Shown one piece after another: positions 10 to 27,917 of a stretch of 34,947 nt of DNA. Source of the DNA: a virus. The number at the start of each line of letters is the position of its first letter. The stretch's first letter is position 1. The notes under the pieces were generated by a model. It was not told the DNA's origin, searched no databases, and saw nothing but the letters and a program-made list of their open reading frames with translations. Made by a program: the position numbers and the translations under genes. The stretch lies in UHGV virus genome UHGV-0162383; one strand, written 5' to 3'.

Positions 10-29
10 TTGTGTACATTTGTACACAA
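10..29. promoter_or_regulatory. Perfect inverted repeat TTGTGTACA-tt-TGTACACAA just upstream of the TetR-family gene; candidate autoregulatory operator
   Basis: 9-bp arms are exact reverse complements, placed about 20 bp upstream of the likely ATG at 50; TetR-family repressors typically bind palindromes overlapping their own promoter. Confidence 0.4.
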
Positions 30-49
30 TTGCAGAGAGAGGAAATGAC

Positions 50-586
50 ATGCGTCGCGCTAACGATCCGCAACGGCGAGAAAAAATTATCCAGGCCACG
101 CTGGAGGCGGTGAAACTTTACGGAATACATGCTGTTACGCACCGCAAAATTGCTACCCTTGCCGGGGTACCGTTGGGATCGATGACCTACTATTTTTCAG
201 GAATTGATGAGTTGTTGCTGGAGGCGTTCAGCAGTTTTACTGAGATTATGTCCCGGCAATATCAGGCATTTTTTAGCGATGTTAGTGATGCTCAAGGCGC
301 ATGCCAGGCTATCACCGATATGATCTACAGCTCACAGGTTGCAACGCCGGATAATATGGAGCTGATGTACCAGCTCTACGCGCTGGCTAGCCGAAAACCG
401 CTATTAAAAACGGTAATGCAAAACTGGATGCAGCGCAGTCAGCAAACGCTCGAACAATGGTTTGAACCCGGAACCGCCCGCGCGCTTGATGCGTTTATTG
501 AGGGGATGACGCTGCATTTTGTCACCGACCGTAAGCCGCTATCGCGCGAGGAGATTTTGAGGATGGTTGAGAGGGTTGCAGGGTAG
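50..586 (+). CDS. TetR-family transcriptional regulator (host flank of the prophage)
   Basis: N-terminal HTH signature ([41 protein letters not shown]); ORF runs from 20 (TTG) but ATG at 50 with AGGAAA-type RBS is the more plausible start; host-like GC content. Confidence 0.8.
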
Positions 587-690: not shown

Positions 691-1743
691 TTACGGGGTA
701 ATGCCAACCGCTGCCGCCACTTTGTCGCCACTTGGCAGCGTTGCCAGAGGATTGAAACGGAGCGCCGTTTCCAGATGATCCGGTGCCAGATGTGCGTAAC
801 GCATAGTCATTTTTATATCGTGGTGTCCGAGAATTTTTTGTAAGGCCAGAATGTTTCCACCCGACATCATGAAGTGCGCCGCAAACGTATGGCGCAGAAC
901 GTGTGTGAGTTGACCGCGAGGGAGCACGATAGACGTTTTTTCCATCACGGATAAAAATTGAAAATAGCAGTCTGTGAAGAAATTGAACCCATCAAGCGCC
1001 ATGATCTCTTCGTAAAGCTCTTTACTGATAGGGATGCTTCTGTTTTTCTTCCCCTTCGTTCTTACAAAGGTAATTCGGTATTTGGTCACCTGTGAACGAG
1101 TAAGATTTACGGCTTCTCGCCAGCGTGCGCCTGTGCTTAAGCATATCTTAACTACCAGTGCCAGAATTGGGTCCTGACGTTTGCAATCAGCCAGTAATTC
1201 AACAATCTGCTCATGGGTAAGCCATGCCATCTCTTTTTCTGCGATGGTGAATTTTCGCATGTTCTCCAGTGGGTTCGGATACGACCATTCGCCCAGGCGG
1301 GATAGTTCGCTAAAAACACTACTTAGATAGCTTTGCTCCAGGTTAATGGTGACCGGGCTTGCTCCTTTCTTCCATTTCTCGCTGAAGTAGATCTCACCTG
1401 TCAGGCGTTTATCTCGATAGTGGGCAAACATTTTAGAGGTTAGATCAGTTGCAAGGGGATTGCCCAGAGCGTCAACCATCAGCAGCAATTTGTCATAGAC
1501 ATGCTGCCCAGCTGTCAGTGATTTACCATGTAGTTTGAACCATAGCTCAACCACGTCTTTCAGTGTTCGACGATCCACTGATTCACCTAGCCAGGGCTTT
1601 GCTTCGGTTTCTTCCATCGTGTGACGCTCAAAAGCCAGTGCTTCGCCTTTGGTGGCGAATTGTTTACGCACACGACGTCCACTACGTCCGGCGGGGTAAC
1701 ATTCGCAAAGCCATTTTCCTGTGGTGAGTTTTCGTACTGCCAT
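691..1743 (-). CDS. int: Phage integrase, tyrosine recombinase (P2/186 Int family)
   Basis: 350 aa; C-terminal catalytic signature HVLRHTFAAHFMMSGGNILALQKILGHHDIKMTMRYAH (R..H..R..Y); N-terminus MAVRKLTTGKW...RKQFATKGEALAFE typical of P2/186 integrases; sits at the prophage end. Confidence 0.9.
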   Translation of the reverse strand: MAVRKLTTGKWLCECYPAGRSGRRVRKQFATKGEALAFERHTMEETEAKPWLGESVDRRTLKDVVELWFKLHGKSLTAGQHVYDKLLLMVDALGNPLATDLTSKMFAHYRDKRLTGEIYFSEKWKKGASPVTINLEQSYLSSVFSELSRLGEWSYPNPLENMRKFTIAEKEMAWLTHEQIVELLADCKRQDPILALVVKICLSTGARWREAVNLTRSQVTKYRITFVRTKGKKNRSIPISKELYEEIMALDGFNFFTDCYFQFLSVMEKTSIVLPRGQLTHVLRHTFAAHFMMSGGNILALQKILGHHDIKMTMRYAHLAPDHLETALRFNPLATLPSGDKVAAAVGITP

Positions 1744-1826
1744 AAAAAAGCCCTCATATCAGAGGGCTAAATTTAACTGTATATACAACCAGTAATCAAT
1801 GTGTGATTGCTATGAAACATACATTG

Positions 1827-3503
1827 CTAAGCAACATGTAGTTCATCGTTGGCGGAAGTGGCTGCTTTGCGTTCCTGCTCAATAGCTAGTGACTCTCTAT
1901 ATTCTTTCGCCTCTGCAAACATTGTCCAGTGGGCATTGATGTTCATATCTTCAATAACCGATTTAATTTCTTTAATATTTACGTTAAAAAACTCTTTTCG
2001 TGAGTTAATTTTATTGACCTGCTTTTCGTTGAAGACTTTATGCAGATGATTTTCTAATGACGGTGCATCATCACTATAAATCATCGCATGAACATCGAAC
2101 GAAAAAGGAACACTAGCATCCCCAAGTTCACGAACACGATCAAGTGGTTCAAGGCGGCGTGTCATTCCAATTTTATATACATCTTCGCCAAATGAGCCAA
2201 TATTGCTAATTATATAAACATGGCCTGATCTAGTTTGTTGAGCCATAGAAATAGCTCGTTGGTTTTTAGCTTCAGCTTCTTCATATTTTAACTGTAGTTC
2301 AGCTATTTTTTGCTCTAAAGCTAAGCGTTGTTCTTCATTTGCAAGCATAAGCTCTTTCGTTGCTTTATTTATAGCTTGCTGAATAGCTTTTTCTTCTTTT
2401 TCGGCTTCTTTTATCGCTTTTTCATACTCTCTACGAGCTCTTTCCTCTTCACGAAGCTGTTCTTTAATCCTTCTTTGCTCCTCTTTTTCTTCGAGCATAA
2501 TTTCATTAACTGCAACTCCCCATTTTAGCTCGTTGAGTCGTGCCTGAAGATAGATGTCACTTATTTTTGCGGATCTAAAAGCAGAGCCATTATAATTTAC
2601 AAGTTGAAATGCATCTTTTATTTCTTGGGAAAGTTTTCCAAAATTGTTGTGTTTGACTTTTGATAAAATACTGTCAACTCTTCCATTGAAGGCATCCAAA
2701 ACAAAGTTGATAGCAGTATTACGCCTGTTTTGCTCAACATAATCACACGAAGCTGCTTTATTAGTTTTTATTAATGATTTTGTTAACTCCCTGGCTTTTT
2801 GTAATTCCTTGCCTGCATCTGTAAACTCATAATTTTCTGCCAATTCATCAAGTACACTACGGTTAGGGATGATCCATTCATCGCCATAACCTTCAATTTT
2901 ATTTTTCATTGATTTGGCAACTGCTTCATATTTTTCTGCAAACTCTTTAGCTTCATATGCTGAACCAGCAATCTCTTTTGCTCTTTCTTCTGCATCGGAA
3001 ATAATTTTTACTGCGTTGTCATTAGCATTTGAGATCAGCTCATTTGCTTTACTGTTGGCATTATCAAGACGTTCTTTGGCTTTCAGGCGTGCATCGCGAG
3101 CGTCTTTGGTGATTGCTATAGCTTCGCTATTAGCGTTGCTTATTGTTATCTGAGCTTGATAACTTGCTTCGTTTACTGTCTTAGCTGCCTTTATTTGGGC
3201 TTCTTCTATTTTTTGCCTAGCTATTGAGTCTGCATTTTTTATCTTATTCTCTGCCTCCATCACTGCGCTGTGCAATTCTTCGTATTGCCATAATGGTGCT
3301 GCTCGCCCTTCAAGCTCTGATAGATCTCGTGCAGTCTGTGCTAACTTTTCTTGATTTTCACTCAGTTGGCTGGAAAGGGCTATGTTGTTAGCCGTCAGGT
3401 TATCTATGGCGGCTTTGTGTTCTTTACTTTGCTTAAATAATATTATAGCTAGAACAGGGGCGAGAAATGCTAATAAGAATATAACGATGGAAAATGAATT
3501 CAT
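1827..3503 (-). CDS. Membrane-anchored coiled-coil protein with DUF4041-like middle region and C-terminal T5orf172 (GIY-YIG-like) domain; cargo (moron) gene
   Basis: 558 aa; N-terminal hydrophobic helix (IVIFLLAFLAPVLAIILF), long A/E/K-rich heptad-like stretches, C-terminal GHVYIISN...VYKIGMT.R...R..E motif resembling GIY-YIG/T5orf172; strongly AT-rich compared with flanking int and cI. Confidence 0.6.
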   Translation of the reverse strand: MNSFSIVIFLLAFLAPVLAIILFKQSKEHKAAIDNLTANNIALSSQLSENQEKLAQTARDLSELEGRAAPLWQYEELHSAVMEAENKIKNADSIARQKIEEAQIKAAKTVNEASYQAQITISNANSEAIAITKDARDARLKAKERLDNANSKANELISNANDNAVKIISDAEERAKEIAGSAYEAKEFAEKYEAVAKSMKNKIEGYGDEWIIPNRSVLDELAENYEFTDAGKELQKARELTKSLIKTNKAASCDYVEQNRRNTAINFVLDAFNGRVDSILSKVKHNNFGKLSQEIKDAFQLVNYNGSAFRSAKISDIYLQARLNELKWGVAVNEIMLEEKEEQRRIKEQLREEERARREYEKAIKEAEKEEKAIQQAINKATKELMLANEEQRLALEQKIAELQLKYEEAEAKNQRAISMAQQTRSGHVYIISNIGSFGEDVYKIGMTRRLEPLDRVRELGDASVPFSFDVHAMIYSDDAPSLENHLHKVFNEKQVNKINSRKEFFNVNIKEIKSVIEDMNINAHWTMFAEAKEYRESLAIEQERKAATSANDELHVA

Positions 3504-3523
3504 TTTTAAATCCTTTTACTATA

Positions 3524-4120
3524 TCAATTTGAAACTATTGTACTTCTTATACAAGCAACCACTTCAATATCAGAAAATGCACATTCAAAGCTATTCTCTG
3601 TAGTTGTAATTTTAATCATACCTTTTGGAAGCTTTGTGATTTTTCGAATGGAATAGGTTCCGTCGATGTTGATTAACCAGTGTCCATCAAGTACTTCAGA
3701 AAATTTTTGATCACAAATGTATGTGACAAGCCCATCCTGAATAACAATTGGTGATGAAAGATTTGCAGGAAGAAATGATGAATCGAATACATATGAACCA
3801 TCTTCAATCATTTTGCCTGCGGTAAGGCGAAACTTGGGAAGCTCTTCTGTGGCTACTGTCAGCGAGCTTTGCTTAAGTCCTTGCCCGGTGGTTAACCATT
3901 TCAGTGAGGTTCCTGTTTCAAGAGCACATTGGATTATCCAGTCTGCAGGAAACGTATCCCGCAAATACCTGTTCGCCAGAGTGCTTTTTGATACTTCCAA
4001 GTGATCAGCTAAAGCCTGTCGTGTCGTAAAGCCATAAGCTTCGACTAATCGCTCAATCGCAGCCTTACCACCTTTATTGGGATTTATTTTGATCTCACTT
4101 GGGTACTTTGATGTTGACAT
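3524..4120 (-). CDS. cI: Phage immunity repressor, 186 CI-like (HTH N-terminal domain)
   Basis: 198 aa; N-terminal HTH-like segment (YGFTTRQALADHLEVSKSTLANRYLRD); position immediately after int and divergent from apl/cII-like genes, as in 186. Confidence 0.75.
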   Translation of the reverse strand: MSTSKYPSEIKINPNKGGKAAIERLVEAYGFTTRQALADHLEVSKSTLANRYLRDTFPADWIIQCALETGTSLKWLTTGQGLKQSSLTVATEELPKFRLTAGKMIEDGSYVFDSSFLPANLSSPIVIQDGLVTYICDQKFSEVLDGHWLINIDGTYSIRKITKLPKGMIKITTTENSFECAFSDIEVVACIRSTIVSN

Positions 4121-6020: not shown

Positions 6021-6874
6021 GCACCATCCTGAAATGGGCGGGAAATAAAACCGCCATTATGTCCGAACTGAAAAAACACCTTCCTGCAGGCCCGCGACTG
6101 GTTGAACCTTTCGCGGGTTCCTGTGCTGTGATGATGGAGACGGATTATCCCTGCTATCTGGTTGCGGATATTAATCCTGATTTAATCAACCTCTATAAAA
6201 AGGTTGCCGCTGATTGTGAGGTGTTTATATCTCGTGCCAGAGCTTTATTTGAGGACGCAAACAGGGAGGTGACTTATTACAACATAAGACAGGAGTTTAA
6301 TTACTCAACTGAAATTACTGATTTCATGAAAGCGGTATATTTCCTGTATCTCAATCGTCACGGTTACCGTGGGTTATGTCGTTATAACAAGAGCGGGCAT
6401 TTCAACATTCCATACGGTAATTATAAAAATCCGTATTTCCCTGAAAAAGAAATTCGCGCATTTGCAGAGAAAGCCCAGCGAGCAACGTTTATCTGCGCCA
6501 GCTTTGATGAAACGCTGGCGATGCTGCAGGTGGGGGATGTGGTGTATTGCGATCCGCCTTATGACGGTACGTTTTCCGGCTATCACACTGACGGCTTCAC
6601 TGAAGATGACCAGTATCACCTGGCATCCGTTCTTGAACATCGGTCATCAGAAGGATATCCGGTCATTGTTTCTAACAGTGACACATCCCTGATCCGTTCG
6701 TTGTATCGCAATTTCACCCACCACTACATCAAAGCAAAACGCAGCATCGGTGTGGCAGCTGGTGAGAGTAAATCTGCAACAGAAATCATCGCTGTTTCCG
6801 GGCCGCGCTGCTGGGTAGGATTTGATCCTTCGCGTGGCGTGGATTGTTCCGTCGTGTACGGAGTGCGTGCATGA
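6017..6874 (+). CDS. dam: DNA adenine methyltransferase (Dam-like, N6-adenine MTase)
   Basis: N-terminal ILKWAGNK...PFAGSCAV (AdoMet-binding) and DPPY catalytic motif ([15 protein letters not shown]); ATG 6017 with GGAGG RBS, ATGA overlap with the upstream stop. Confidence 0.85.
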
Positions 6875-9285
6875 GCCATGCTGATATGAACAACTGCAGC
6901 GGCTTTAATGAGGTCGCCGCAGCATTCTCATGGAACAGCCCGAAAAAGGCCATTAACCCTTATCTGGACCCGGCGGAAGTTGCGCCGGTTTCTGCGCTTT
7001 CAAACCTGATCACTCTGTACGCTGCCGATAACGAGCAGGAACAACTGCGCCGCGAGGCACTGAGTGATCAGGTCTGGGAGCGTTATTTCTTTAATGAATC
7101 CCGTGATCCTGTCCAGCGCGAAATGGAGCAGGATAAGCTCATTAGCCGGGCAAAGCTGGCGCATGAGCAGCAGCGTTTTAATCCGGATATGGTCATTCTG
7201 GCGGACGTCAACGCCCAGCCTTCCCATATCAGCAAGCCGCTGATGCAACGTATTGAATACTTTAGCAGCCTGGGCAGGCCAAAGGCTTATTCCCGCTATT
7301 TACGTGAGACGATTAAGCCATGTCTGGAACGACTGGAGCATGTACGCGACAGCCAGCTATCTGCATCTTTTCGCTTTATGGCAAGCCATGAAGGGCTGGA
7401 CGGCCTGCTGATCCTGCCTGAAATGAGTCAGGATCAGGTGAAGCGCCTGTCTACCCTTGTCGCCGCGCATATGAGCATGTGCCTTGATGCAGCTTGTGGT
7501 GATTTGTATGCCACCGATGACGTTAAGCCAGAAGAAATCCGCAAGACATGGGAAAAGGTGGCAGCGGAAACCCTGCGTCTGGATGTCATCCCGCCTGCGT
7601 TTGAGCAACTCCGCCGGAAAAGAAACCGCCGTAAACCCGTGCCCTATGAACTCATTCCGGGTTCGCTGGCGCGTATGTTGTGCGCCGACTGGTGGTACCG
7701 GAAATTATGGAAGATGCGTTGCGAATGGCGGGAAGAGCAGTTGCGTGCTGTCTGCCTGGTCAGCAAAAAAGCATCTCCCTATGTCAGCTATGAAGCCGTG
7801 ATGCATAAACGTGAGCAGCGCCGTAAGTCGCTGGAGTTTTTTCGTTCTCATGAACTGGTGAACGAAGACGGCGACACGCTGGACATGGAGGATGTGGTAA
7901 ACGCCAGCAGCAGCAACCCTGCGCATCGCCGCAATGAGATGATGGCCTGTGTTAAAGGCCTGGAGCTTATCGCGGAAATGCGTGGTGACTGCGCCGTTTT
8001 CTACACCATTACCTGTCCGTCACGTTTCCATTCCACGCTCAATAACGGCAGACCAAACCCAACCTGGACAAATGCGACGGTAAGACAAAGCAGCGATTAT
8101 CTGGTCGGCATGTTTGCTGCATTTCGTAAGGCGATGCACAAAGCCGGGTTGCGCTGGTATGGCGTGCGGGTGGCTGAGCCGCATCATGACGGTACGGTTC
8201 ACTGGCACCTGTTGTGTTTCATGCGCAAAAAAGACCGCCGTGCCATTACTGCATTGTTGCGTAAGTTTGCCATCCGTGAAGACCGCGAGGAACTGGGTAA
8301 TAACACTGGTCCACGCTTTAAATCTGAGCTGATAAACCCGCGCAAAGGAACACCGACAAGCTACATCGCGAAATACATTAGTAAGAACATTGACGGGCGT
8401 GGTCTGGCTGGCGAGATCAGCAAGGAAACGGGTAAATCCCTGCGTGATAACGCTGAATACGTTAATGCCTGGGCGTCTCTGCATCGTGTTCAGCAATTCC
8501 GCTTCTTTGGTATTCCGGGGCGTCAGGCTTACCGTGAACTGCGATTGCTGGCTGGTCAGGCGGCAAGGCAACAGGGCGACAAAAAAGCAGGTGCGCCGGT
8601 ACTGGATAACCCGCGCCTTGATGCCATCCTGGCTGCTGCTGATGCTGGTTGTTTTGCCACTTACATCATGAAGCAGGGTGGTGTACTGGTTCCCCGCAAA
8701 TATCACCTCATCAGAACTGCTTATGAAATTAACGAAGAGCCGACCGCCTATGGCGATCACGGCATTCGTATTTATGGCATCTGGTCACCCATTGCAGAGG
8801 GCAAGATCTGCACTCATGCAGTGAAGTGGAAAATGGTTCGTAAAGCCGTTGACGTTCAGGAGGCGGTAGCCGACCAGGGCGCTTGCGCCCCTTGGACTCG
8901 TGGCAATAACTGTCCCCTTGCTGAAAATTTGTACCAACAAGGGAAAGACAAATCAGCTGATGGAGATACCAGAACGGATATCACCCGCATGGATGACAAG
9001 GAGTTGCACGATTACCTGCACAGTATGAGCAAAAAAGAGCGCCGGGAACTGGCTGCAAGGTTACGCCTGGTGAAACCGAAACGGCGTAAAGACTACAAAC
9101 AGCGAATTACAGACCATCAGCGACAGCAGCTCGTCTATGAACTGGAGTCCAGAGGATTTAATGGCAGCGAGAAAGAGGTCGATTTACTCCTTCGCGGCGG
9201 CAGTATTCCGTCAGGAGCAGGTCTGCGTATCTTCTATCGGAACCAGCGTTTGCAGGAAGATGATAAGTGGCGAAACCTGTATTAA
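6871..9285 (+). CDS. A: Replication initiation protein A (rolling-circle HUH endonuclease, P2 gpA family)
   Basis: About 804 aa; HUH motif ([13 protein letters not shown]) and downstream Tyr-containing segment ([10 protein letters not shown]); ATG 6871 overlaps the dam stop (ATGA); the six-frame ORF begins upstream at TTG 6844. Confidence 0.9.
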
Positions 9286-9379: not shown

Positions 9380-9395
9380 CTGTAAATATAAACAG
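9380..9395. promoter_or_regulatory. LexA (SOS) box CTGT-N8-ACAG: taCTGTaaatataaACAGtg
   Basis: Canonical CTGT-N8-ACAG with AT-rich spacer, about 45 bp upstream of the Tum-like/DinI-like gene pair. Confidence 0.65.
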
Positions 9396-9438: not shown

Positions 9439-9627
9439 ATGCAGGACTATTTTTTGGAGTCTTTGAAGCTCCAGCGCATTGATTTTTTTCTTAAGCTTGT
9501 AGCGGCTAGTGAGTGTAGTGATGAAGAGAAGGGGCTGGCTTTGCAGTGGGTTTCTGAACTGACAGATGAACTCATGGCAAAAATCAGAAGCCACGAATAC
9601 AACCGCTCAATGGATGTCATCAGCTGA
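9439..9627 (+). CDS. Small protein downstream of the LexA box; candidate Tum-like SOS-inducible antirepressor
   Basis: 62 aa from ATG 9439 with AGGAGG RBS; position and LexA control match the 186 tum locus; no sequence-level confirmation. Confidence 0.4.
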   Translation: MQDYFLESLKLQRIDFFLKLVAASECSDEEKGLALQWVSELTDELMAKIRSHEYNRSMDVIS

Positions 9628-9637
9628 GGGGACTTTT

Positions 9638-9871
9638 ATGCGCATTGAAATAATGATCGATAAAGAGCAGAAGATTAGCCAGTCTACCCTGGACGCCCTT
9701 GAATCCGAGCTTTACCGCAATCTGCGCCCCCTGTATCCCAAAACGGTAATTCGTATCCGTAAAGGTAGCTCTAACGGTGTGGAACTGACCGGACTGCAAC
9801 TGGACGAAGAAAGGAAGCAAGTGATGAAAATTATGCAGAAGGTGTGGGAAGACGACAGCTGGCTGCATTAA
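9638..9871 (+). CDS. DinI-family protein
   Basis: 77 aa, MRIEIMIDKEQKISQSTLDALESELYRNL...VWEDDSWLH, resembling E. coli DinI in length and in N- and C-terminal motifs; immediately follows the Tum-like ORF under the same LexA box. Confidence 0.7.
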   Translation: MRIEIMIDKEQKISQSTLDALESELYRNLRPLYPKTVIRIRKGSSNGVELTGLQLDEERKQVMKIMQKVWEDDSWLH

Positions 9872-10141: not shown

Positions 10142-10357
10142 ATGTCAAGCATCGCCGCATTTAGCCTGGGTAACCCAGTTGAACGTCTGGCAAGGGTTCT
10201 TAAAGAGAACCAGGACAAACTCAATCTTAGTAAAGATGGTTTTGTGTCCGTAGACTTGTCTAACAAAAGAGCAATGGATGCCATCAAGGCACAGATGGAT
10301 AAGCTTGAAGGCATCAAAACGAGCACTGTAAAAGAGAAAACTAATAGAACCAGATAA
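10142..10357 (+). CDS. Small soluble charged protein; first gene of a two-gene cargo operon
   Basis: 71 aa; strong RBS AGGGGGAG before ATG 10142; stop overlaps the downstream start (TAATG); AT-rich. Confidence 0.45.
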   Translation: MSSIAAFSLGNPVERLARVLKENQDKLNLSKDGFVSVDLSNKRAMDAIKAQMDKLEGIKTSTVKEKTNRTR

Positions 10358-11199
10358 TGGCAACATTACTTTTAGCAGTGATTTTGGTTAGTGGTTTTAT
10401 TTATGTAAACCTATCACTTTCAACAAGATACCGATATAAGCGTTCCAACGGCTGGGACGCTTATTTTTTTGTGGCTGCCTGGGGTATTGTTTTTTTTCTC
10501 CTTGGCGGTTTTTTCACCTTTATTTTGAACGTCAGCGGAGGGTTTCGTTGGCTGGCTAATGCCTTGAATCTAACACCTGACAGTTTTAATGGCATGTTGT
10601 CTTCATCGAAAGACAAACTTCAAAGAATAAATGAAATCAAACAGATAGCATGGGTTATGATTTCAATTGTCCTCGCTGCGATTTCAGGTTTTGGAAATAA
10701 GTTACGCACATCACGTGGAGATCGTCGCTGGGATGCCTTAGCTAAAGCTGTGGGTAATAACGCTTTCGAATCATTACTCATGGAAGCGTCCGCAAGACAG
10801 TTTCCGATCATAGCAACTCTGTCGTCTCGCAAAATCTATGTTGGTCTTGTTACTTGTCCGGCGTTAGAAAACGGGCTTTCAGAGCACCTTGAACTTCTCC
10901 CGATGTTAAGCGGATATCGGGATAAAGATGATCTAACGATTAGTATCACGACTAACTATCACCAACATTATCTTGATAGTGGTGTGATAAGTGGAATGTC
11001 TCGGCTTAATATCGAAGATTTCCGTGTGCTCATACCAAAAGATGAGGTTGAAACAATTTCGTTTTTTGATACTGAGACATATAACAAATTTAAAGAAAAT
11101 GAAGCCAGGGATAGAAAGAGCTGTCGAAAGATTGGTAGTAAAAGTGCATCTTCGCGCAGCAAGCGTGCAGCAGATGCTGAGTCAAATGATCGTGCATGA
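10357..11199 (+). CDS. Integral membrane protein (about 3 TM helices) with cytoplasmic C-terminal domain; second gene of the cargo operon
   Basis: 280 aa; hydrophobic segments near residues 3-17, 35-57 and 97-112, then a soluble domain of roughly 130 aa and a basic Ser/Arg/Lys-rich tail; translationally coupled to the upstream ORF; followed by an intrinsic terminator. Confidence 0.5.
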   Translation: MATLLLAVILVSGFIYVNLSLSTRYRYKRSNGWDAYFFVAAWGIVFFLLGGFFTFILNVSGGFRWLANALNLTPDSFNGMLSSSKDKLQRINEIKQIAWVMISIVLAAISGFGNKLRTSRGDRRWDALAKAVGNNAFESLLMEASARQFPIIATLSSRKIYVGLVTCPALENGLSEHLELLPMLSGYRDKDDLTISITTNYHQHYLDSGVISGMSRLNIEDFRVLIPKDEVETISFFDTETYNKFKENEARDRKSCRKIGSKSASSRSKRAADAESNDRA

Positions 11200-11455: not shown

Positions 11456-13237
11456 ATGAATTTTGATGCAACACCACTAAATATAAAAAACATTCTATCT
11501 GTAAAACAAAGATATGTTATTCCACGTAATCAACGTGAGTTTAGTTGGGAAAAGCTTCAGCTTGAAGAATTATGGCAAGATATTGTCAGAAACATAAGGT
11601 TGAATGAAGATGGACAGAACTTGGAGTGTTCAGAATATTTTATAGGGACTATTGTTCTTTCTGGAGCAGATAGTGATGATGTATTAGAAGTGGTTGATGG
11701 ACAACAACGATTTTCAGTTATTACTATATTGCTTTCATTAATATCGCGTAAATTGCGTTCCTTAGGGCAAGATTCATTAGCGGATGATATATTTAAAACA
11801 TATATCGTTACTGTGAGTCCTACATTTAGCAGAAGCCAATTAGCTTCAAATGGTGAGACATTTATTGAAAAATTAGCAAAAAATAGCGATAGAACATATT
11901 TTAAGTTAAAATATCAAGATCGCGAAGAGCATCAAGTTGATGAATCTTGTGAAGAAGATGTACGTATAAGTTATGCAGGAATTTTTCTTTCTAGAAAACT
12001 AGGGAGGAAATCACTCTGTTCTGCATTGTTGCGAGATGGTGCAAAACATTATAATAACCAAGATTATATATTTTGTTTGACTGCTGTATATAGAATGATT
12101 ACCAATTATTTGAAGTTGGTAAAAATATCTGTAGGTAAGGAGGATGATGCTTATGATATTTTTGAAGTGTTGAATGCTCGAGGGATAAACTTAAGTTCAA
12201 TTGATTTGATAAAGAATAAAGTATTCCAAACTTGCACTCAAACATATCCGGTAGATATTGCAAAAACAAAATGGGATTATATCGTTACTCAAATTGAGTC
12301 TAGGGATAGTAATAGCACTATTGCTGATTATATTAGAACGTGGTGGCTTTCTAAGTATAATTATATTGGAGAAGATCAACTTTATCGTGCTTTTAAACGT
12401 GAGATTCAAGATGAGAATACTTTATTGTCATCAGCATCATTTCTGAACGAATTATATGATGATGTTGAATTATACTGTAAAATAATAGCGCCAAATACAG
12501 ATGACTGGCCTCAACCTGATCAGCGTGAAATTTACAACTCGTTAAAAGCATTCGAGATTTTTAATGTGAGTATTCCTCGACCATTTGTACTCTCATTACT
12601 TAGAAAACGTAAAGAGAAACCGAGAGCCCTTACACAATCAATGCTGATAGAATGTTTGAAGTCCTTAGAGTCATTTCACTTTAAGTTTAATGCAGTATGT
12701 CGTCTAAGACCATCTGGAATCGATGCAAAATATTCTGTATTAGCAGTAAGAATGAATAAGGCATTAAATAAAAGAGATGTTGAGGGTGTTATTAATGACG
12801 CATTAGATTATTTTACACAGAAAGGGCCTTCAGAAAATATATTCAAACAAGCATTTTCAAAGAATATTGTTTATACAAATAAAAAGTCTGGGCAAAGGAA
12901 GTTGATTGTTTATATTTTTGACAAATTGGAACGTATCAGACGAGGGACGCGAGAGTTAAAAATGGATATAGTTTCTTTGGAACACATATCATCTCAAAGC
13001 AAAACTAACGAGTCAGTCGTGGGTATGATTGGTAATTTACTACCACTCTGTTTTTCACTTAATGAAGATTGCAAAAATTATGAGTTGCACAAAAAAATAG
13101 AATCTTATAAAAAATCTGATTTAAAATTAGTTACAGAGTTTGTTAGTGAGTCAGAAGCAAGAGAACATAAATGGGATGATTCATTAATAAAAGAAAGAAC
13201 AGATAGCTTGGCGTTAGAAACGTTTGCTAAAATATAA
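11456..13237 (+). CDS. DUF262/DUF1524 two-domain protein, GmrSD-like (type IV restriction-like) nuclease; cargo gene
   Basis: 593 aa; N-terminal DUF262/ParB-like motifs (IPRNQREFSWE and VVDGQQRFSV), C-terminal His-Me-finger-like motifs (SLEHISSQS ... GNLLPLCFSLNEDCKN); strongly AT-rich; RBS GAGGA before ATG 11456. Confidence 0.6.
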   Translation: MNFDATPLNIKNILSVKQRYVIPRNQREFSWEKLQLEELWQDIVRNIRLNEDGQNLECSEYFIGTIVLSGADSDDVLEVVDGQQRFSVITILLSLISRKLRSLGQDSLADDIFKTYIVTVSPTFSRSQLASNGETFIEKLAKNSDRTYFKLKYQDREEHQVDESCEEDVRISYAGIFLSRKLGRKSLCSALLRDGAKHYNNQDYIFCLTAVYRMITNYLKLVKISVGKEDDAYDIFEVLNARGINLSSIDLIKNKVFQTCTQTYPVDIAKTKWDYIVTQIESRDSNSTIADYIRTWWLSKYNYIGEDQLYRAFKREIQDENTLLSSASFLNELYDDVELYCKIIAPNTDDWPQPDQREIYNSLKAFEIFNVSIPRPFVLSLLRKRKEKPRALTQSMLIECLKSLESFHFKFNAVCRLRPSGIDAKYSVLAVRMNKALNKRDVEGVINDALDYFTQKGPSENIFKQAFSKNIVYTNKKSGQRKLIVYIFDKLERIRRGTRELKMDIVSLEHISSQSKTNESVVGMIGNLLPLCFSLNEDCKNYELHKKIESYKKSDLKLVTEFVSESEAREHKWDDSLIKERTDSLALETFAKI

Positions 13238-13273: not shown

Positions 13274-14311
13274 TTACATACACTCCACAGAGTATTCACT
13301 GAATGAGATGATGTTTTTTTTAGCCCATTCATTAAGTTGCAGAATATGTTTTTGAATTGGTAGTAACTCATTCATAACAAATACTTTCGCGGCCTTCTCC
13401 ACATCCCCAAAACCCCCAACATTATTAGGCATTATCCCCATCATTTGCGGCGGCACGCGGTGCGCAGCCATCATGTCATCACGGCTCACGTTTTTGATAT
13501 TCAGAAACTCATCCTTCGCTGCGACTTCTGACAACGGGATAATCTGAAGACCGTCTTTTTTACCATTAGGCGAGTACATAAACAGATTGCGGAAGTTACC
13601 TGGTCCTTTGGCGCTTTTCATCGCATTGCGAAGGTTGTTCACGTCCTCCTGGTTCTGCGCGGCATCGGTCATGTACATGATGAAGCCTGCATGACTGCCG
13701 TTAATGTAATACTTGCGGCGGAACAGCGTGGCGGACTCGTTGAGCAGGGCTGACGGAATGGCAGAAAGATAGCCGGGCAGACCATAGATCTCCTGATTTA
13801 TGTCCGGTTCCATCAGATGGAAAATGCTGCCTTTCGTGAACTGATACGGCTGCGTGGTCATGCCGTATTGCACAAACCAGTAGGTATCCAGGTCTAACCC
13901 GCGTCGGGTGTATTTTGCCAGCGCAGGTTCAAGGGCGATAACTTCACCGAAGCGGTTCGTGCGTTTCTCCAGATAGGCGTTACCAAATACCAGATAGTCC
14001 TGTACAAAACGCGAAAAAGCCTGTTGGCTGAGCAGCGGATGAGGGATATAGGTACTGGTCAGAATGTTGCACTTTACTGCAATCGGGGAACTGTGATGCA
14101 CGGCAGCGCGGAAGGTGCGCGCCAGTCCGTCAAAGCTGACGGGCGGCTCATACCAACGGTCCATCTGTACGCATTCCACATAGTCCAGTAATTCTCGGCG
14201 GTCCAGAACTGGAACGGGATCGCCGAAGCTGAATGCTTCGGCTGTAGTCTGGTTTTTATGCTGGATCTGATTCGTCGCCGCAGTGCGGTTTTTCTTACTC
14301 TTTCCCATCAA
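13274..14311 (-). CDS. Q: Portal (capsid vertex) protein, P2 gpQ family
   Basis: 345 aa; sequence (FSFGDPVPVLDRRELLDYVE...WYEPPVSFDGLAR...GNAYLE..) matches my recollection of P2 Q; adjacent to and co-oriented with the terminase. Confidence 0.9.
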   Translation of the reverse strand: MMGKSKKNRTAATNQIQHKNQTTAEAFSFGDPVPVLDRRELLDYVECVQMDRWYEPPVSFDGLARTFRAAVHHSSPIAVKCNILTSTYIPHPLLSQQAFSRFVQDYLVFGNAYLEKRTNRFGEVIALEPALAKYTRRGLDLDTYWFVQYGMTTQPYQFTKGSIFHLMEPDINQEIYGLPGYLSAIPSALLNESATLFRRKYYINGSHAGFIMYMTDAAQNQEDVNNLRNAMKSAKGPGNFRNLFMYSPNGKKDGLQIIPLSEVAAKDEFLNIKNVSRDDMMAAHRVPPQMMGIMPNNVGGFGDVEKAAKVFVMNELLPIQKHILQLNEWAKKNIISFSEYSVECM

Positions 14312-23922: not shown

Positions 23923-24520
23923 TCTGCTGCCACCGGGTTCAACGCCACTGGAGCGCCGACTGGCACAAACCTGCAGCGGGATTTCTGATTTGCAGGTGCC
24001 GCTACGTGACTTGTGGAATCCGGCGACCTGTCCGGTCAGTTTCCTGCCTTATCTCGCCTGGGCGTTCTCTGTGGATCGCTGGGACGAGGGCTGGACAGAA
24101 AGCGTCAAGCGCCAGGTGGTGAAGGATGCTTTTTATATTCATCAGCATAAAGGAACCACCAGTGCCGTGCGGCGGGTGGTGGAGCCGTTCGGCTTCCTGA
24201 TCCGCATTATTGAGTGGTGGCAGACCGGAGAAACACCGGGCACGTTTCGCCTGGATATCGGCGTGCAGGACCAGGGCATCACTGAAGATACCTATCTGGA
24301 ACTTGAGCGACTGATAAGCGATGCCAAACCATGTAGCCGTCACATGATCGGCATGTCTATCAATCTGCAGACCAGCGGCCCGCATTGGGTGGGAGCCGCC
24401 AGCTATCTTGGCGAAGAAATCACGATCTATCCGTATATCAACGAAACAATTATTTCCGGCGGCACCGCGCATGAAGGCGGGGCGGTCCATGTTATTGACA
24501 CAATGAGAGTGAATCCATGA
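23915..24520 (+). CDS. I: Baseplate/tail protein I
   Basis: 201 aa; synteny with P2 I. Confidence 0.8.
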
Positions 24521-25938
24521 GCACAAAATTTTATACCCTGCTGACGGATATTGGCGCGGCGAAACTTGCCAGCGCCGCCGCGCTCGGTGTGCCTTTAAAA
24601 ATTACCCATATGGCAGTCGGCGATGGCGGCGGAATATTGCCAACGCCGGACGCAAAGCAGACAGCACTGGTAAATGAGAAACGCCGGGCTGCGCTGAATA
24701 TGCTCTATATCGACCCGCAGAACAGCAGCCAGATTATTGCCGAACAGGTGATCCCTGAAAATGAGGGCGGTTGGTGGATCCGTGAAGTGGGCCTGTTTGA
24801 TGAGTCCGGGGCATTGATTGCCGTGGGTAACTGCCCGGAAAGCTATAAGCCGCAACTGGCTGAAGGCAGCGGGCGCACCCAGACCGTGCGCATGGTGCTG
24901 ATTACCAGCAGCACGGACAATATCACCCTGAAAATCGACCCTGCCGTCGTGCTGGCAACCCGCAAGTATGTGGATGACAAGGTACTGGAGCTGAAGGTGT
25001 TCGTGGATGATAAGATGGCAAAACATCTTGCCGCACCGGACCCGCATTCACAGTATGCACCCAAAGAAAGCCCGACATTGACCGGAACACCCAAAGCGCC
25101 AACGCCAGCGGAGGGGAATAACACCACGCAGATTGCGACCACCGCGTTTGTTCAGGCCGCTATTACTGCTCTGATTAACGGTGCGCCAGCCACGCTGGAC
25201 ACACTGAAAGAAATTGCCGCAGCCATTAACAATGACCCGAAATTCAGTACCACCATTAACAATGCGCTGGCACTAAAAGCACCGCTGTTGAGTCCGGCAC
25301 TCACCGGAACGCCAACAGCACCTACTGCGGCACAGTCGGTTAACAATACACAGATTGCCACCACGGCTTTTGTGAAATCGGCAATTGCGGCAATGGTGGG
25401 GTCTGCACCTGCTGCACTGGATACACTGAACGAACTGGCTGCGGCGCTGGGGAATGACCCGAACTTTGCCACGACAATGCTTAATGCACTGGCAGGTAAA
25501 CAACCGCTGGACAATACGCTGACTAATTTGAGTGGAAAGGATGTAGCTGGTCTTCTCACATACCTTGGTTTGGGAGAAGCGGCAAAACGAAATGTGGGAA
25601 CAGGGGAAAATCAGATACCGGACATGGCTTCATTTAGTGGGGTGAGGGATTATTACGGAAAACAACTTTTGCCAGGAGGGTTGATACTTCAGTGGCTGAC
25701 GATTCCATCAAGTGCAGCAGCCAAAGCTGTAACACTGAATAATGGTAATTATCAGCTGTCAGGCTATAAATGGCCCCAGTCATTTGGTGTCCTGTTTGCT
25801 GTGTTTGCTACAAAAGTTTCTGGCTCGACTAACGAAGCATATGCAATCTCAGTTAATCGTCACTCTACCGATGTAATTGTCACCTGGAATGCCCGTAAGG
25901 CTGATGATGTCCACATTTTAGGAATTGGGAAATTATGA
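24517..25938 (+). CDS. H: Tail fibre protein H (current orientation); constant N-terminal part fused to variable C-terminal part
   Basis: 473 aa; N-terminus [39 protein letters not shown] typical of P2-like H; two internal ~70-aa repeats; recombination site within the gene at 25553-25578. Confidence 0.85.
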
Positions 25939-26354
25939 AAATGAAATGGTCCCCATCTGTTCAGGGATTTTTCTCTGAAAATAACAGCGATATTCCCGAT
26001 GATGCTTTCGATATTGAAGATGCTCTTTATTATGAACTTATGAATGGTCAGAGTACGGGGAAAATTATTATCAATAACCCGGATAACTACCCTGTACTTA
26101 CTGAATATCCAGCGAAGACACAGGAACAGGAAATAGCTGAAGCGGAGGGAATGAAAAGTATACTTATTGAACAGGCCAACGAATACATGAACAGTAAGCA
26201 ATGGCCTGGTAAAGCCGCTATTGGTCGTCTGAAAGGTGAGGAACTGGCGCAATATAATTTGTGGCTGGATTACCTGGACGCACTGGAACTGGTCGATACT
26301 TCCGGTGCGCCAGATATTGAATGGCCTACGCCTCCGGCAGTTCAGGCCAGATGA
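25935..26354 (+). CDS. G: Tail fibre assembly chaperone G (current orientation)
   Basis: 139 aa immediately downstream of H with ATGA overlap; typical tail-fibre-assembly position. Confidence 0.7.
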
Positions 26355-26589
26355 CGTCCGACGCGGTGCTGGTATCTGATTCCATCACCGCGTCGATATT
26401 ACCAACATCATATTCAGTCATTTCCGGTTCCGGTAGTGCTATAAACTCTCCGTCAGAATAGAACCAACCGACGCCTGCATCTATATGATCAATATTTATA
26501 ATTTCGCAGTTAGAGAATAAATCACCCTCTCCATCCCAGATAATAATATTTTTCACCACGCCATGTTCAATCAGAGCAAAATTACTCAT
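26326..26589 (-). CDS. Alternative tail fibre assembly/chaperone gene, inverted orientation (used after segment inversion)
   Basis: 87 aa ORF on the opposite strand inside the invertible segment, immediately downstream of the alternative fibre tip ORF. Confidence 0.5.
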   Translation of the reverse strand: MSNFALIEHGVVKNIIIWDGEGDLFSNCEIINIDHIDAGVGWFYSDGEFIALPEPEMTEYDVGNIDAVMESDTSTASDVIWPELPEA

Positions 26590-27282
26590 CAGGCATACTC
26601 CTCAACAATAACTATTCCCGGGGCACCGTCACCTCCCGATTGAGCCTCACTTCCGGCAGATGCGCAGGCTCCGCCTCCGCCAGCACCAAAGCCCTCAGCT
26701 TTACCACCACCACGTCCGCTGAATGATGAAGAACTTGCACCACCTATACCGCCTGAACCTAGTGGTGTATCCCCCCCGGTACCACCTGCAACAGCTTTAA
26801 CAGAGATAACCATTGCTCCTGGTGTTTTTGCACTACAGCGAAATGCTCTTAGTACAGTACCGGACGATGTCGGACTGGCACCCCATGAAATACCCTGAAT
26901 ATATGATGTGTTTGCAGATGCTCCCCCCGCGCCACCGCCTGTACCACCCGGTGCAGTTATCAGGGAACCGAAATAAGTTGTGCCACCTTCACTACCTGAA
27001 TTTCTTCCGGCTCCCCCCCCTTTACCTGCAGCACCGATAATAACGTTGACTTCGAAATCATTATCAACCTCGAAAAATGCTTCAATAAATGCACCGCTCA
27101 ATCCAGCTCCGGCTGTTGCCTGCTGATTTTCTGTTGTTTCAGGAACCCCACCGCCGCCGCCACCGCCACCAGAGGCAATGACCCTTATCTTTTTTGTCCC
27201 TGGTGTTGGGATATATTTTCCAGAGCTTTTAAAAATATTCGTGTTTAACAAACGACCAGAGAATCTGGCTTCTCCCAAACCA
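26589..27282 (-). CDS. Alternative tail fibre C-terminal (receptor-binding) segment, glycine-rich; no own start, expressed only after inversion
   Basis: Open frame on the minus strand runs from the crossover site to 26589; Gly-rich tracts (GGGGGGGG, GGTGGGAGG); shares the site-encoded GLGEA residues with the current H junction. Confidence 0.65.
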
Positions 27283-27350
27283 ACGTTTATGAAAATGCAG
27301 AGATAACGGCTAACTGGCATCATCTCCGGTTTTTATTCAGGGGAATGATC

Positions 27351-27917
27351 ATGCTTATTGGCTATGTACGCGTGTCAACAAATGACCAGAACACCGATTT
27401 GCAACGCAATGCACTGAACTGTGCGGGATGTGAGCGGATTTTTGAGGATAAAATCAGTGGCACCAAGTCCGACAGACCGGGGCTGAAAAAGCTGCTCAGG
27501 ACACTATCGGCAGGAGACACGCTGGTTGTCTGGAAGCTGGACAGACTGGGGCGCAGTATGCGGCATCTTGTTACGCTGATAGAAGAGCTGCGCCAGCGTG
27601 GCGTAAATTTCCGAAGCCTGACTGACAGTATTGATACCAGCACCCCAATGGGCCGTTTCTTTTTTCATGTCATGGGTGCCCTGGCTGAAATGGAACGCGA
27701 ACTGATAGTTGAACGTACCAGGGCGGGGCTGGCTGCAGCTCGTGCTAAAGGCAGAGTAGGTGGACGCCGTCCTAAGTTGACCAGCGAACAGTGGGCACAG
27801 ATTGGGCGTTTACTCGAGGCCGGAGAATCAAGACAGCGTATTGCACTGATTTTTGATGTAGGCGTTTCTACCATTTATCGAAAATTTCCGGCAAATAAGA
27901 ACAATAAATCTCCCTGA
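27351..27917 (+). CDS. Site-specific DNA invertase, serine recombinase (Hin/Gin/Cin/Pin family)
   Basis: MLIGYVRVSTNDQNTDLQRNAL...VVWKLDRLGRS...DSIDTSTPMGRFFFHVMGALAEMERELIVERT: resolvase/invertase catalytic domain with Ser in YVRVST plus C-terminal HTH; an alternative ATG lies at 27345. Confidence 0.9.
   Translation: MLIGYVRVSTNDQNTDLQRNALNCAGCERIFEDKISGTKSDRPGLKKLLRTLSAGDTLVVWKLDRLGRSMRHLVTLIEELRQRGVNFRSLTDSIDTSTPMGRFFFHVMGALAEMERELIVERTRAGLAAARAKGRVGGRRPKLTSEQWAQIGRLLEAGESRQRIALIFDVGVSTIYRKFPANKNNKSP

Follow-up and report, generated by a model that had tools for sequence, protein, structure and literature searches.

A SNIPE (PD-λ-1) Family Gene Between the cI Repressor and Integrase Genes of a 186-Like Prophage

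Introduction

A functional selection for resistance to λ yielded the anti-phage system PD-λ-1 of Escherichia coli ECOR26 (Vassallo et al. 2022, PMC9519451). Now called SNIPE, the system has been the subject of a mechanistic study (Saxton et al., bioRxiv 10.1101/2025.11.03.685801; reviewed in PMC13434031). Here we describe a member of this family in the virus genome UHGV-0162383, a stretch of 34,947 nucleotides (nt) referred to below as the window. The gene is a minus-strand open reading frame (ORF) at 1827..3503, between the integrase gene (int) and the immunity repressor gene (cI) of a 186-like (Peduoviridae) prophage integrated beside rcdA.

The reference SNIPE of ECOR26 (RCP76574.1, 500 amino acids, aa) resides in the inner membrane with an N-out topology, is found in proximity to ManYZ and the λ tape measure protein, and cleaves λ DNA during injection, not after. 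Defence and toxicity are both lost in the E414A mutant and defence is lost when DUF4041, which binds DNA, is deleted, while the protein without its transmembrane (TM) segment is toxic and causes chromosome breaks. A weak and broad activity against siphoviruses is independent of ManYZ, and all myoviruses and podoviruses tested were unaffected. Mutations in DUF4041 (E223K, W257R and others) change specificity, and phage escape mutations fall in the tape measure protein. The protein is made constitutively and leaves prophage induction unaffected. Its N-terminal region, placed at ManYZ in the published model, was proposed as a specificity adapter, and most homologues are reported to be membrane-targeted (all from bioRxiv 10.1101/2025.11.03.685801).

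Related or comparable systems are known from other settings. Streptococcus thermophilus PD-Lambda-1 (EU01 / CIRM956) belongs to the same family according to DefenseFinder and PADLOC and is chromosomal in a Gram-positive host; phages of several S. thermophilus genera are held back by more than 3 logs by the EU01 protein, a distant homologue. Zorya and Kiwa, like SNIPE, are located at the inner membrane near the site of genome entry, but they are multi-gene systems and we detected no sequence relationship. HK97 gp15, likened to SNIPE in the discussion of bioRxiv 10.1101/2025.11.03.685801, is also prophage-encoded and tape-measure-dependent, but it blocks injection without a nuclease domain, and again no sequence relationship was detected.

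Accessory genes of P2-like phages occupy fixed backbone sites with variable cargo. These include old/tin (between gpA and the portal gene), Z/fun (tail), the cI-int interval, reported as a hotspot in Vibrio K139-like P2-related phages (PMC9122126), and the integrase-primase and integrase-att (attachment site) intervals, which held 8% and 3%, respectively, of P2 defence systems in a 2026 survey (PMC13586616). In phage 186 itself the lysogenic operon runs from pL through cI and int to orf69, and the cI stop codon overlaps the int start; the P2 prototype has a 115-bp gap without an annotated gene between C and int.

Results

Family Assignment and Domain Architecture

The ORF is a real gene that encodes 558 aa from ATG to stop codon. 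Both PADLOC PD-Lambda-1 hidden Markov models (HMMs) match the product, PDLC03976 with E = 7.3e-120 (residues 107-550 aligned to positions 37-481 of 491 in the profile) and PDLC03977 with E = 3.7e-116, as does phrog_1847 of PHROGs (E = 4e-132). The sequence features by which SNIPE membership is recognized occur together: the family HMM match, DUF4041, a GIY-YIG nuclease domain with its catalytic Glu, an N-terminal TM segment, and organization as a single gene. We conclude that the product is a SNIPE (PD-λ-1) family anti-phage nuclease acting during DNA injection, with a probability of roughly 0.85. RefSeq copies that are 99-100% identical are named either “DUF4041 domain-containing protein” or “SNIPE associated domain-containing protein,” and the current Pfam label of PF13250 is “SNIPE.” The gene and the parts of its product are as follows.

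1827..3503, minus strand: SNIPE / PD-λ-1 family gene, 558 aa, single-gene anti-phage defence system (ORF, HMM, alignment, dN/dS)
3438..3494, minus strand: codons of the N-terminal TM anchor, residues 4-22, FSIVIFLLAFLAPVLAIIL (Kyte-Doolittle hydropathy)
2895..3425, minus strand: predicted N-terminal Ala-rich helical hairpin, residues 27-203, the variable “adapter” region (AlphaFold2, AF2)
2529..2855, minus strand: globular helical domain with DUF4041, residues about 217-325 (Pfam core 267-322 and AF2)
2229..2528, minus strand: long charged linker helix from DUF4041 to the nuclease, residues 326-425, with a conserved EEQRRIKEQ.REEE.ARRE motif (AF2)
1926..2225, minus strand: C-terminal T5orf172/MUG113 (GIY-YIG-type) nuclease domain, residues 427-526 (Pfam and AF2)
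2052..2054, minus strand: codon of E484, counterpart of the catalytic E414 in the reference SNIPE (pairwise alignment, 70-residue offset)

The N-terminal anchor is the sole stretch of the protein with a Kyte-Doolittle 19-mer mean above 1.6 (2.99 at residues 4-22). No charged residue precedes it and three lysines (K24, K27, K30) follow just after, so that under the positive-inside rule the 558-aa protein would have an N-out/C-in topology. Within this region M1, F4, A12, P16, and L18 are invariant among orthologues, and an N-terminal hydrophobic 17-mer is present in 218 of 235 diverse full-length homologues, which agrees broadly with the membrane targeting published for most of the family. The sequence is then helical and rich in Ala, Glu, and Lys up to about residue 203.

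Three Pfam models score above their curated cut-offs in the remainder of the protein: DUF4041 (PF13250) at residues 267-322 (3e-12, 46.6 bits against a cut-off of 27), T5orf172 at 427-520 (6e-17, 62.5 bits), and MUG113 at 443-520 (1.6e-19, 70.7 bits). An alignment of 90 homologues (46-85% identity) shows which nuclease residues are maintained. E484 is Glu in 90/90 sequences, and Y430, R449, R450, H472, and N497 are likewise invariant; Y443 is Tyr or Phe, and H488 and N500 show almost no variation. Members of the GIY-YIG superfamily have a GIY...YIG, Arg, Glu, Asn pattern, and its elements here (V429-Y430-I431, Y443-K444-I445-G446, R449/R450, E484, N497/N500) are all invariant or nearly so.

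The predicted structure is in line with this domain order. Our AF2 model, built on the 90-sequence alignment from a profile search, has a mean predicted local distance difference test score (pLDDT) of 78.9; an earlier model was unusable (pLDDT 55) and had a shallow alignment of 23 sequences, all at least 81% identical. A long helix continuous with the TM segment covers residues 2-130 and is followed by a turn and a second helix at 136-203, an order which suggests that the two helices pair as a hairpin. After a low-confidence connector (205-215) comes a compact helical domain (217-309) containing DUF4041, with helices at pLDDT 80-90, and then the long linker as helices 316-387 and 390-425. The C-terminal domain is modeled as a beta-beta-alpha-beta-alpha unit at 427-494 (strands 427-435, 441-448, and 470-477; helices 453-459 and 480-494), with further elements up to residue 526, and the modeled order is that of the superfamily core. 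A profile search of PDB sequences returned weak coiled-coil matches alone (e.g., ATP synthase b), without a solved relative.

Comparison With the Reference SNIPE

For pairwise comparison we used a 500-aa “SNIPE associated domain-containing protein” encoded between the ren and nin genes of a lambdoid prophage of E. coli E8 (L001). Its length, domain coordinates, and six residues altered in mutants of the SNIPE paper (E223, N250, L253, W257, E264, E414) are those of the reference; since its identity with the ECOR26 accession could not be confirmed directly, we treat it as reference-type. BLASTP aligned residues 265-555 of the window protein to it at 49% identity (293 residues, E = 1e-76), and hhalign with the 90-homologue profile extended this to residues 224-543 against reference residues 140-474 (probability 100%, E = 2.7e-73), the DUF4041 region aligning to reference residues 140-255.

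The two proteins share a single-gene, prophage-borne organization and the same order of N-terminal TM segment, helical region, DUF4041, linker helix, and nuclease, with the catalytic Glu and other nuclease residues identical. The window protein differs in being 58 residues longer, with domains shifted by 70 residues, and in an N-terminal part of about 220 residues that is unrelated in sequence to the approximately 139 residues of the reference, as would be expected of the family's variable adapter region. It also has S292 for E223 and K327 for W257. Lys or Arg occupies the latter position in 89/90 homologues, which makes the studied reference protein the atypical one here. The settings differ as well: the window gene lies in the lysogenic operon of a 186-like myovirus prophage, the reference-type gene in the ren-nin region of a lambdoid prophage.

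Much of this had been anticipated from the letters alone. The original prediction described an AT-rich 558-aa ORF co-oriented with int and cI (37.6% GC against 50.7% for the window), an N-terminal TM anchor, about 200 residues of coiled coil, a DUF4041-like middle, and a T5orf172/GIY-YIG-like C-terminus, and each of these agrees with the hydropathy, AF2, and Pfam results above. Its guess that the gene serves defence is supported by the PADLOC PD-Lambda-1 matches and by the identity to reference-type SNIPE. The prediction was aware of no characterised function for the architecture, but one exists: this architecture has been published, named, and mechanistically characterised, and the locus is a typical family member.

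Distribution and Selection

An exhaustive search of 1.84 billion cluster representatives returned 3355 clusters at E ≤ 1e-3, 1405 of them at E ≤ 1e-30. The exact 558-aa sequence is recorded from at least 1000 contigs, and 165 of 5426 complete E. coli genomes (about 3%) contain the locus. Gene lengths and spacing, namely cI (198 aa), 20 nt, SNIPE (558 aa), 82-83 nt, and int, are unchanged in prophages that occupy this chromosomal site in Klebsiella and Salmonella. One E. coli prophage integrated elsewhere has the cI-SNIPE-int arrangement too.

Orthologues from Klebsiella, Salmonella, and E. coli HZ13 (82-85% protein identity) were used to estimate nonsynonymous (dN) and synonymous (dS) divergence. 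Relative to these three, dN is about 0.10-0.12 with synonymous sites saturated or nearly so; the comparisons that allowed an estimate of dS give a dN/dS of about 0.03-0.1. Divergence is unevenly distributed, with dN highest in the TM segment, N-terminal hairpin, and C-terminal tail and lowest in DUF4041, the linker, and the nuclease (0.15-0.30 in the N-terminal region vs. about 0.05-0.09 in the latter three). Such values indicate strong purifying selection on the SNIPE gene and point to a functional, long-maintained protein.

Several database entries depart from the intact form. Cluster P0063 (164 member sequences) holds a 477-aa version that is 100% identical over 85% of the query; its start is probably an internal Met, which would leave out the TM anchor and looks like a mis-called start codon. 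Locus L013 (2684-3892) carries ISVsa5, an IS4-family insertion sequence, in the 5′ end of its SNIPE homologue, and in another genome (NZ_CP075487.1, hit H62) an IS1A transposase is annotated inside the locus.

Genomic Position and Expression

Three co-oriented minus-strand genes make up this part of the window, and the elements that bear on their expression lie between them.

3524..4120, minus strand: 186-type immunity repressor cI, 198 aa, PF07022 (Phage_CI_repr) and PF16452 (Phage_CI_C); the upstream gene, in a putative common transcription unit
3511..3516, minus strand: Shine-Dalgarno-like AAAGGA read from the sequence, inside the 20-nt gap after cI and 7 nt upstream of the ORF's ATG
1744..1826, minus strand: int leader, with an inverted repeat, promoter-like hexamers, a palindrome, and a hairpin abutting the int ATG
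691..1743, minus strand: tyrosine integrase, 350 aa, Pfam Int_N and Phage_integrase; the downstream neighbor

The integrase gene adjoins rcdA (20..586), as it does in about 1100 E. coli genomes. GC content is 39.7% in cI and 48% in int. In the loci examined the SNIPE gene is always flanked by the phage backbone genes cI and int, without a conserved partner gene.

All 12 loci examined among E. coli prophages with this integrase have an occupied cI-int slot. With the same integrase and attachment site, the alternative cargo is a 324-aa protein, a 314-aa protein, or a 63-aa gene (minus strand in each case: L004 2726-3700, 324 aa; L005 3448-4392, 314 aa; L006 5636-5827 and L014 3830-4021, 63 aa). 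Five matches classed as “integrase-only” all proved to hold the 63-aa gene (5/5), which two records name “YdcA family.” Every cargo type is paired with a cI allele of its own (314, 292, and 189 aa); the one of 314 aa, in L004, has two Phage_CI_repr stretches. The 198-aa allele is found always with the SNIPE gene in E. coli, intact in 165 cases and with an IS4-family insertion in its 5′ end in one. PADLOC and Pfam scans of the 324-, 314-, and 63-aa cargo gave nothing significant, and the slot thus cannot be called a general defence hotspot. Linkage of cargo type to a particular cI allele in this enterobacterial 186-like lineage is a feature that we did not find stated in the papers that we read.

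A second variable slot lies between att and int (L005 1592-2314, L006 3477-4229, L007 3132-4360, L009 7910-8770). One prophage has a DUF2971/PDC-S31 candidate defence protein there, a second encodes a Panacea-domain protein with a partner, and a third a 240-aa protein that matches HEPN faintly; in a Klebsiella prophage the cargo is a pentapeptide-repeat protein.

The cI stop codon and the ORF's ATG are 20 nt apart, and we found no promoter-like or terminator-like site in this interval. The sequence GTAAAAGGATTT is kept in the Klebsiella and Salmonella orthologous loci and has one mismatch in E. coli HZ13. Co-transcription with cI would fit the reference SNIPE, which is constitutive and does not interfere with prophage induction. 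The placement of the ORF in a cI-to-int lysogenic transcription unit, claimed in the original prediction, accords with this layout. Its statement that the slot normally has no gene is correct for the P2 and 186 prototype records and fails for the relatives of this prophage, as the 12/12 occupied loci demonstrate. In the related prophages examined the slot routinely holds cargo.

The int leader (about 85 nt) is conserved whatever cargo precedes it (alignment A5), which sets the cargo boundary at the ORF stop codon. It contains an ATGTATG..CATACAT inverted repeat, promoter-like hexamers (TTGATT-17-TTAAAT), an invariant LexA-box-like palindrome (ACTG-N10-CAGT, 1777-1792), and a terminator-like hairpin, AGCCCTC-N6-GAGGGCT followed by T6 (1749..1768; fold energy -15.7 kcal/mol, z = -2.3), whose 3′ arm is the only Shine-Dalgarno-like sequence for int. 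The layout is unlike that of phage 186, with its overlap of cI and int, and hints at an int gene shielded from the cI transcript and perhaps under SOS control.

An exact match to the LexA box CTGT-N8-ACAG (CTGTAAATATAAACAG) is located at window positions 9380-9395, just downstream of gene A and upstream of an ORF at 9566-9871 (plus strand) in the position of a “DinI family protein” gene of the near-identical LR-50 prophage. This pairing parallels the p95-tum SOS operon of phage 186. Genome-wide, matches to CTGT-N8-ACAG with at most one mismatch number 18 against 12.4 ± 3.6 expected, not above chance, and the two AT-rich LexA-like sites are worth noting as leads only.

Other Features of the Window

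The interval between gene A (6844-9285) and the portal gene (13274-14311, minus strand) is the classic P2 hotspot. Here it holds a GmrSD-like type IV restriction enzyme gene at 11456-13237 (plus strand; GmrSD_N 2e-32, GmrSD_C 1e-11, PADLOC HEC-06 7e-75), and just upstream a gene for a 280-aa protein (10357-11199, plus strand) with hydrophobic-looking N-terminal stretches and no match in Pfam or PADLOC. With the SNIPE and GmrSD-like genes, the prophage carries at least two defence genes.

A tail-fibre segment that is apparently invertible spans 24517-27917. Genes for a tail fibre (24517-25938) and for tail fibre assembly (25935-26354) are followed by a glycine-rich ORF in the opposite orientation (26589-27323, minus strand) and by the gene of a Hin/Cin-type serine invertase (27345-27917; Resolvase 2e-53 and HTH_7).

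Discussion

Family membership, domain order, conservation of the catalytic residues, purifying selection, and an operon-like layout are established for this locus. By homology, the mechanism of the reference can be assigned to the window protein, which would be a single-pass inner-membrane protein whose cytoplasmic part combines a GIY-YIG-type nuclease with a DUF4041 domain that binds DNA and the tape measure protein. Most likely sharing the lysogenic promoter with cI, the gene would supply the protein constitutively to the lysogen's inner membrane. There it would act on superinfecting phages, most likely siphoviruses, by cutting their DNA during its passage through the membrane, and the membrane tether would keep the nuclease away from the host chromosome and the resident prophage. 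The carrier is a contractile-tailed phage of the P2/186 type and so would itself be outside the target range of the reference SNIPE.

Several points weigh against this picture. When the full-length model was used in fold searches, no match to a GIY-YIG domain was significant, because helical matches prevail. Neither BLASTP nor hhalign detected similarity to the reference in the N-terminal ~220 residues, and both target range and partner may differ as a consequence. Nuclease activity, cleavage at the injection stage, and a preference for siphoviruses are attributed to the 558-aa clade by homology, and two S. thermophilus homologues that are 98.5% identical to each other, one active and one inactive, are a reminder that activity cannot be assumed on this basis. 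Co-transcription of cI and the SNIPE gene in the lysogen, although most likely, we infer from spacing and the phage 186 paradigm.

The divergent N-terminus raises an alternative within the family, namely that the adapter docks onto another entry factor or apparatus, and that the protein serves superinfection exclusion, for example against P2/186-like myoviruses or non-λ phages. Residues 1-223 cannot be aligned to the reference and evolve faster than DUF4041, the linker, and the nuclease, an N-terminal adapter was proposed in the SNIPE paper (bioRxiv 10.1101/2025.11.03.685801), K327 lies where W257R changes the specificity of the reference, and the tight linkage to a single cI immunity allele would be in keeping with an exclusion module. 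Yet the reference is inactive on all myoviruses and podoviruses tested, and conservation extends to the DUF4041 surface implicated in binding the tape measure, so we consider this alternative unlikely.

Far less probable still are two readings that place the gene outside defence. T5orf172/GIY-YIG domains occur in phage homing endonucleases, and a selfish mobile gene of this kind, inserted between cI and int without benefit to host or prophage, might be suspected from an ORF that is AT-rich relative to the window at a site where the prototype phages have no gene. The neighboring cI is comparably AT-rich, however (39.7% GC), and among the prophages examined from E. coli, Klebsiella, and Salmonella, whose proteins are about 82-85% identical, position and spacing do not differ. 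A family member has demonstrated defence function, and the protein has a TM anchor and, under strong purifying selection, a non-nuclease part of ~400 residues. We rejected a free-standing GIY-YIG homing endonuclease on the anchor, DUF4041, stable position across genera, and this selection. Equally implausible is a structural coiled-coil protein, the reading implied by phage records OM835953.1 and ON470620.1 (“chromosome segregation ATPase,” without domain support) and by JGI names (“V-type ATPase subunit H,” “DivIVA”). The weak NCBIfam matches that favor it cover only the Ala/Glu/Lys-rich helices. DivIVA_Wag31 scores 24.5 bits against a cut-off of 260, a coiled-coil resemblance, and SMC_prok_A 15.5 bits against 729, and we rejected both; the Pfam search found no ATPase domain. 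The DivIVA and ATP-synthase-b-like matches of the N-terminal hairpin are likewise far under the family cut-offs.

A SNIPE family nuclease acting at injection thus accounts best for the locus. The sequence is abundant and annotated, and its position falls inside described hotspots: the cI-int site known from P2-related phages of Vibrionaceae, and the integrase-primase interval. As a tentative extension, which we would sooner doubt than accept, the 558-aa clade may be a distinct SNIPE variant whose adapter docks onto an entry factor other than ManYZ and gives a different target range, with cI and SNIPE forming a fixed two-gene module of immunity and injection blocking that swaps as a unit among 186-like prophages.

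The practical weight of the finding is small, as the gene is detectable by standard defence annotation (PADLOC, PD-Lambda-1 models) and is already named in RefSeq. For the family, it adds a data point: a SNIPE variant bound to a single repressor allele and sited within a 186-like prophage's lysogenic operon. The N-terminal region of this clade differs from that of the sole mechanistically studied SNIPE, which makes the clade a reasonable second case for the adapter idea.

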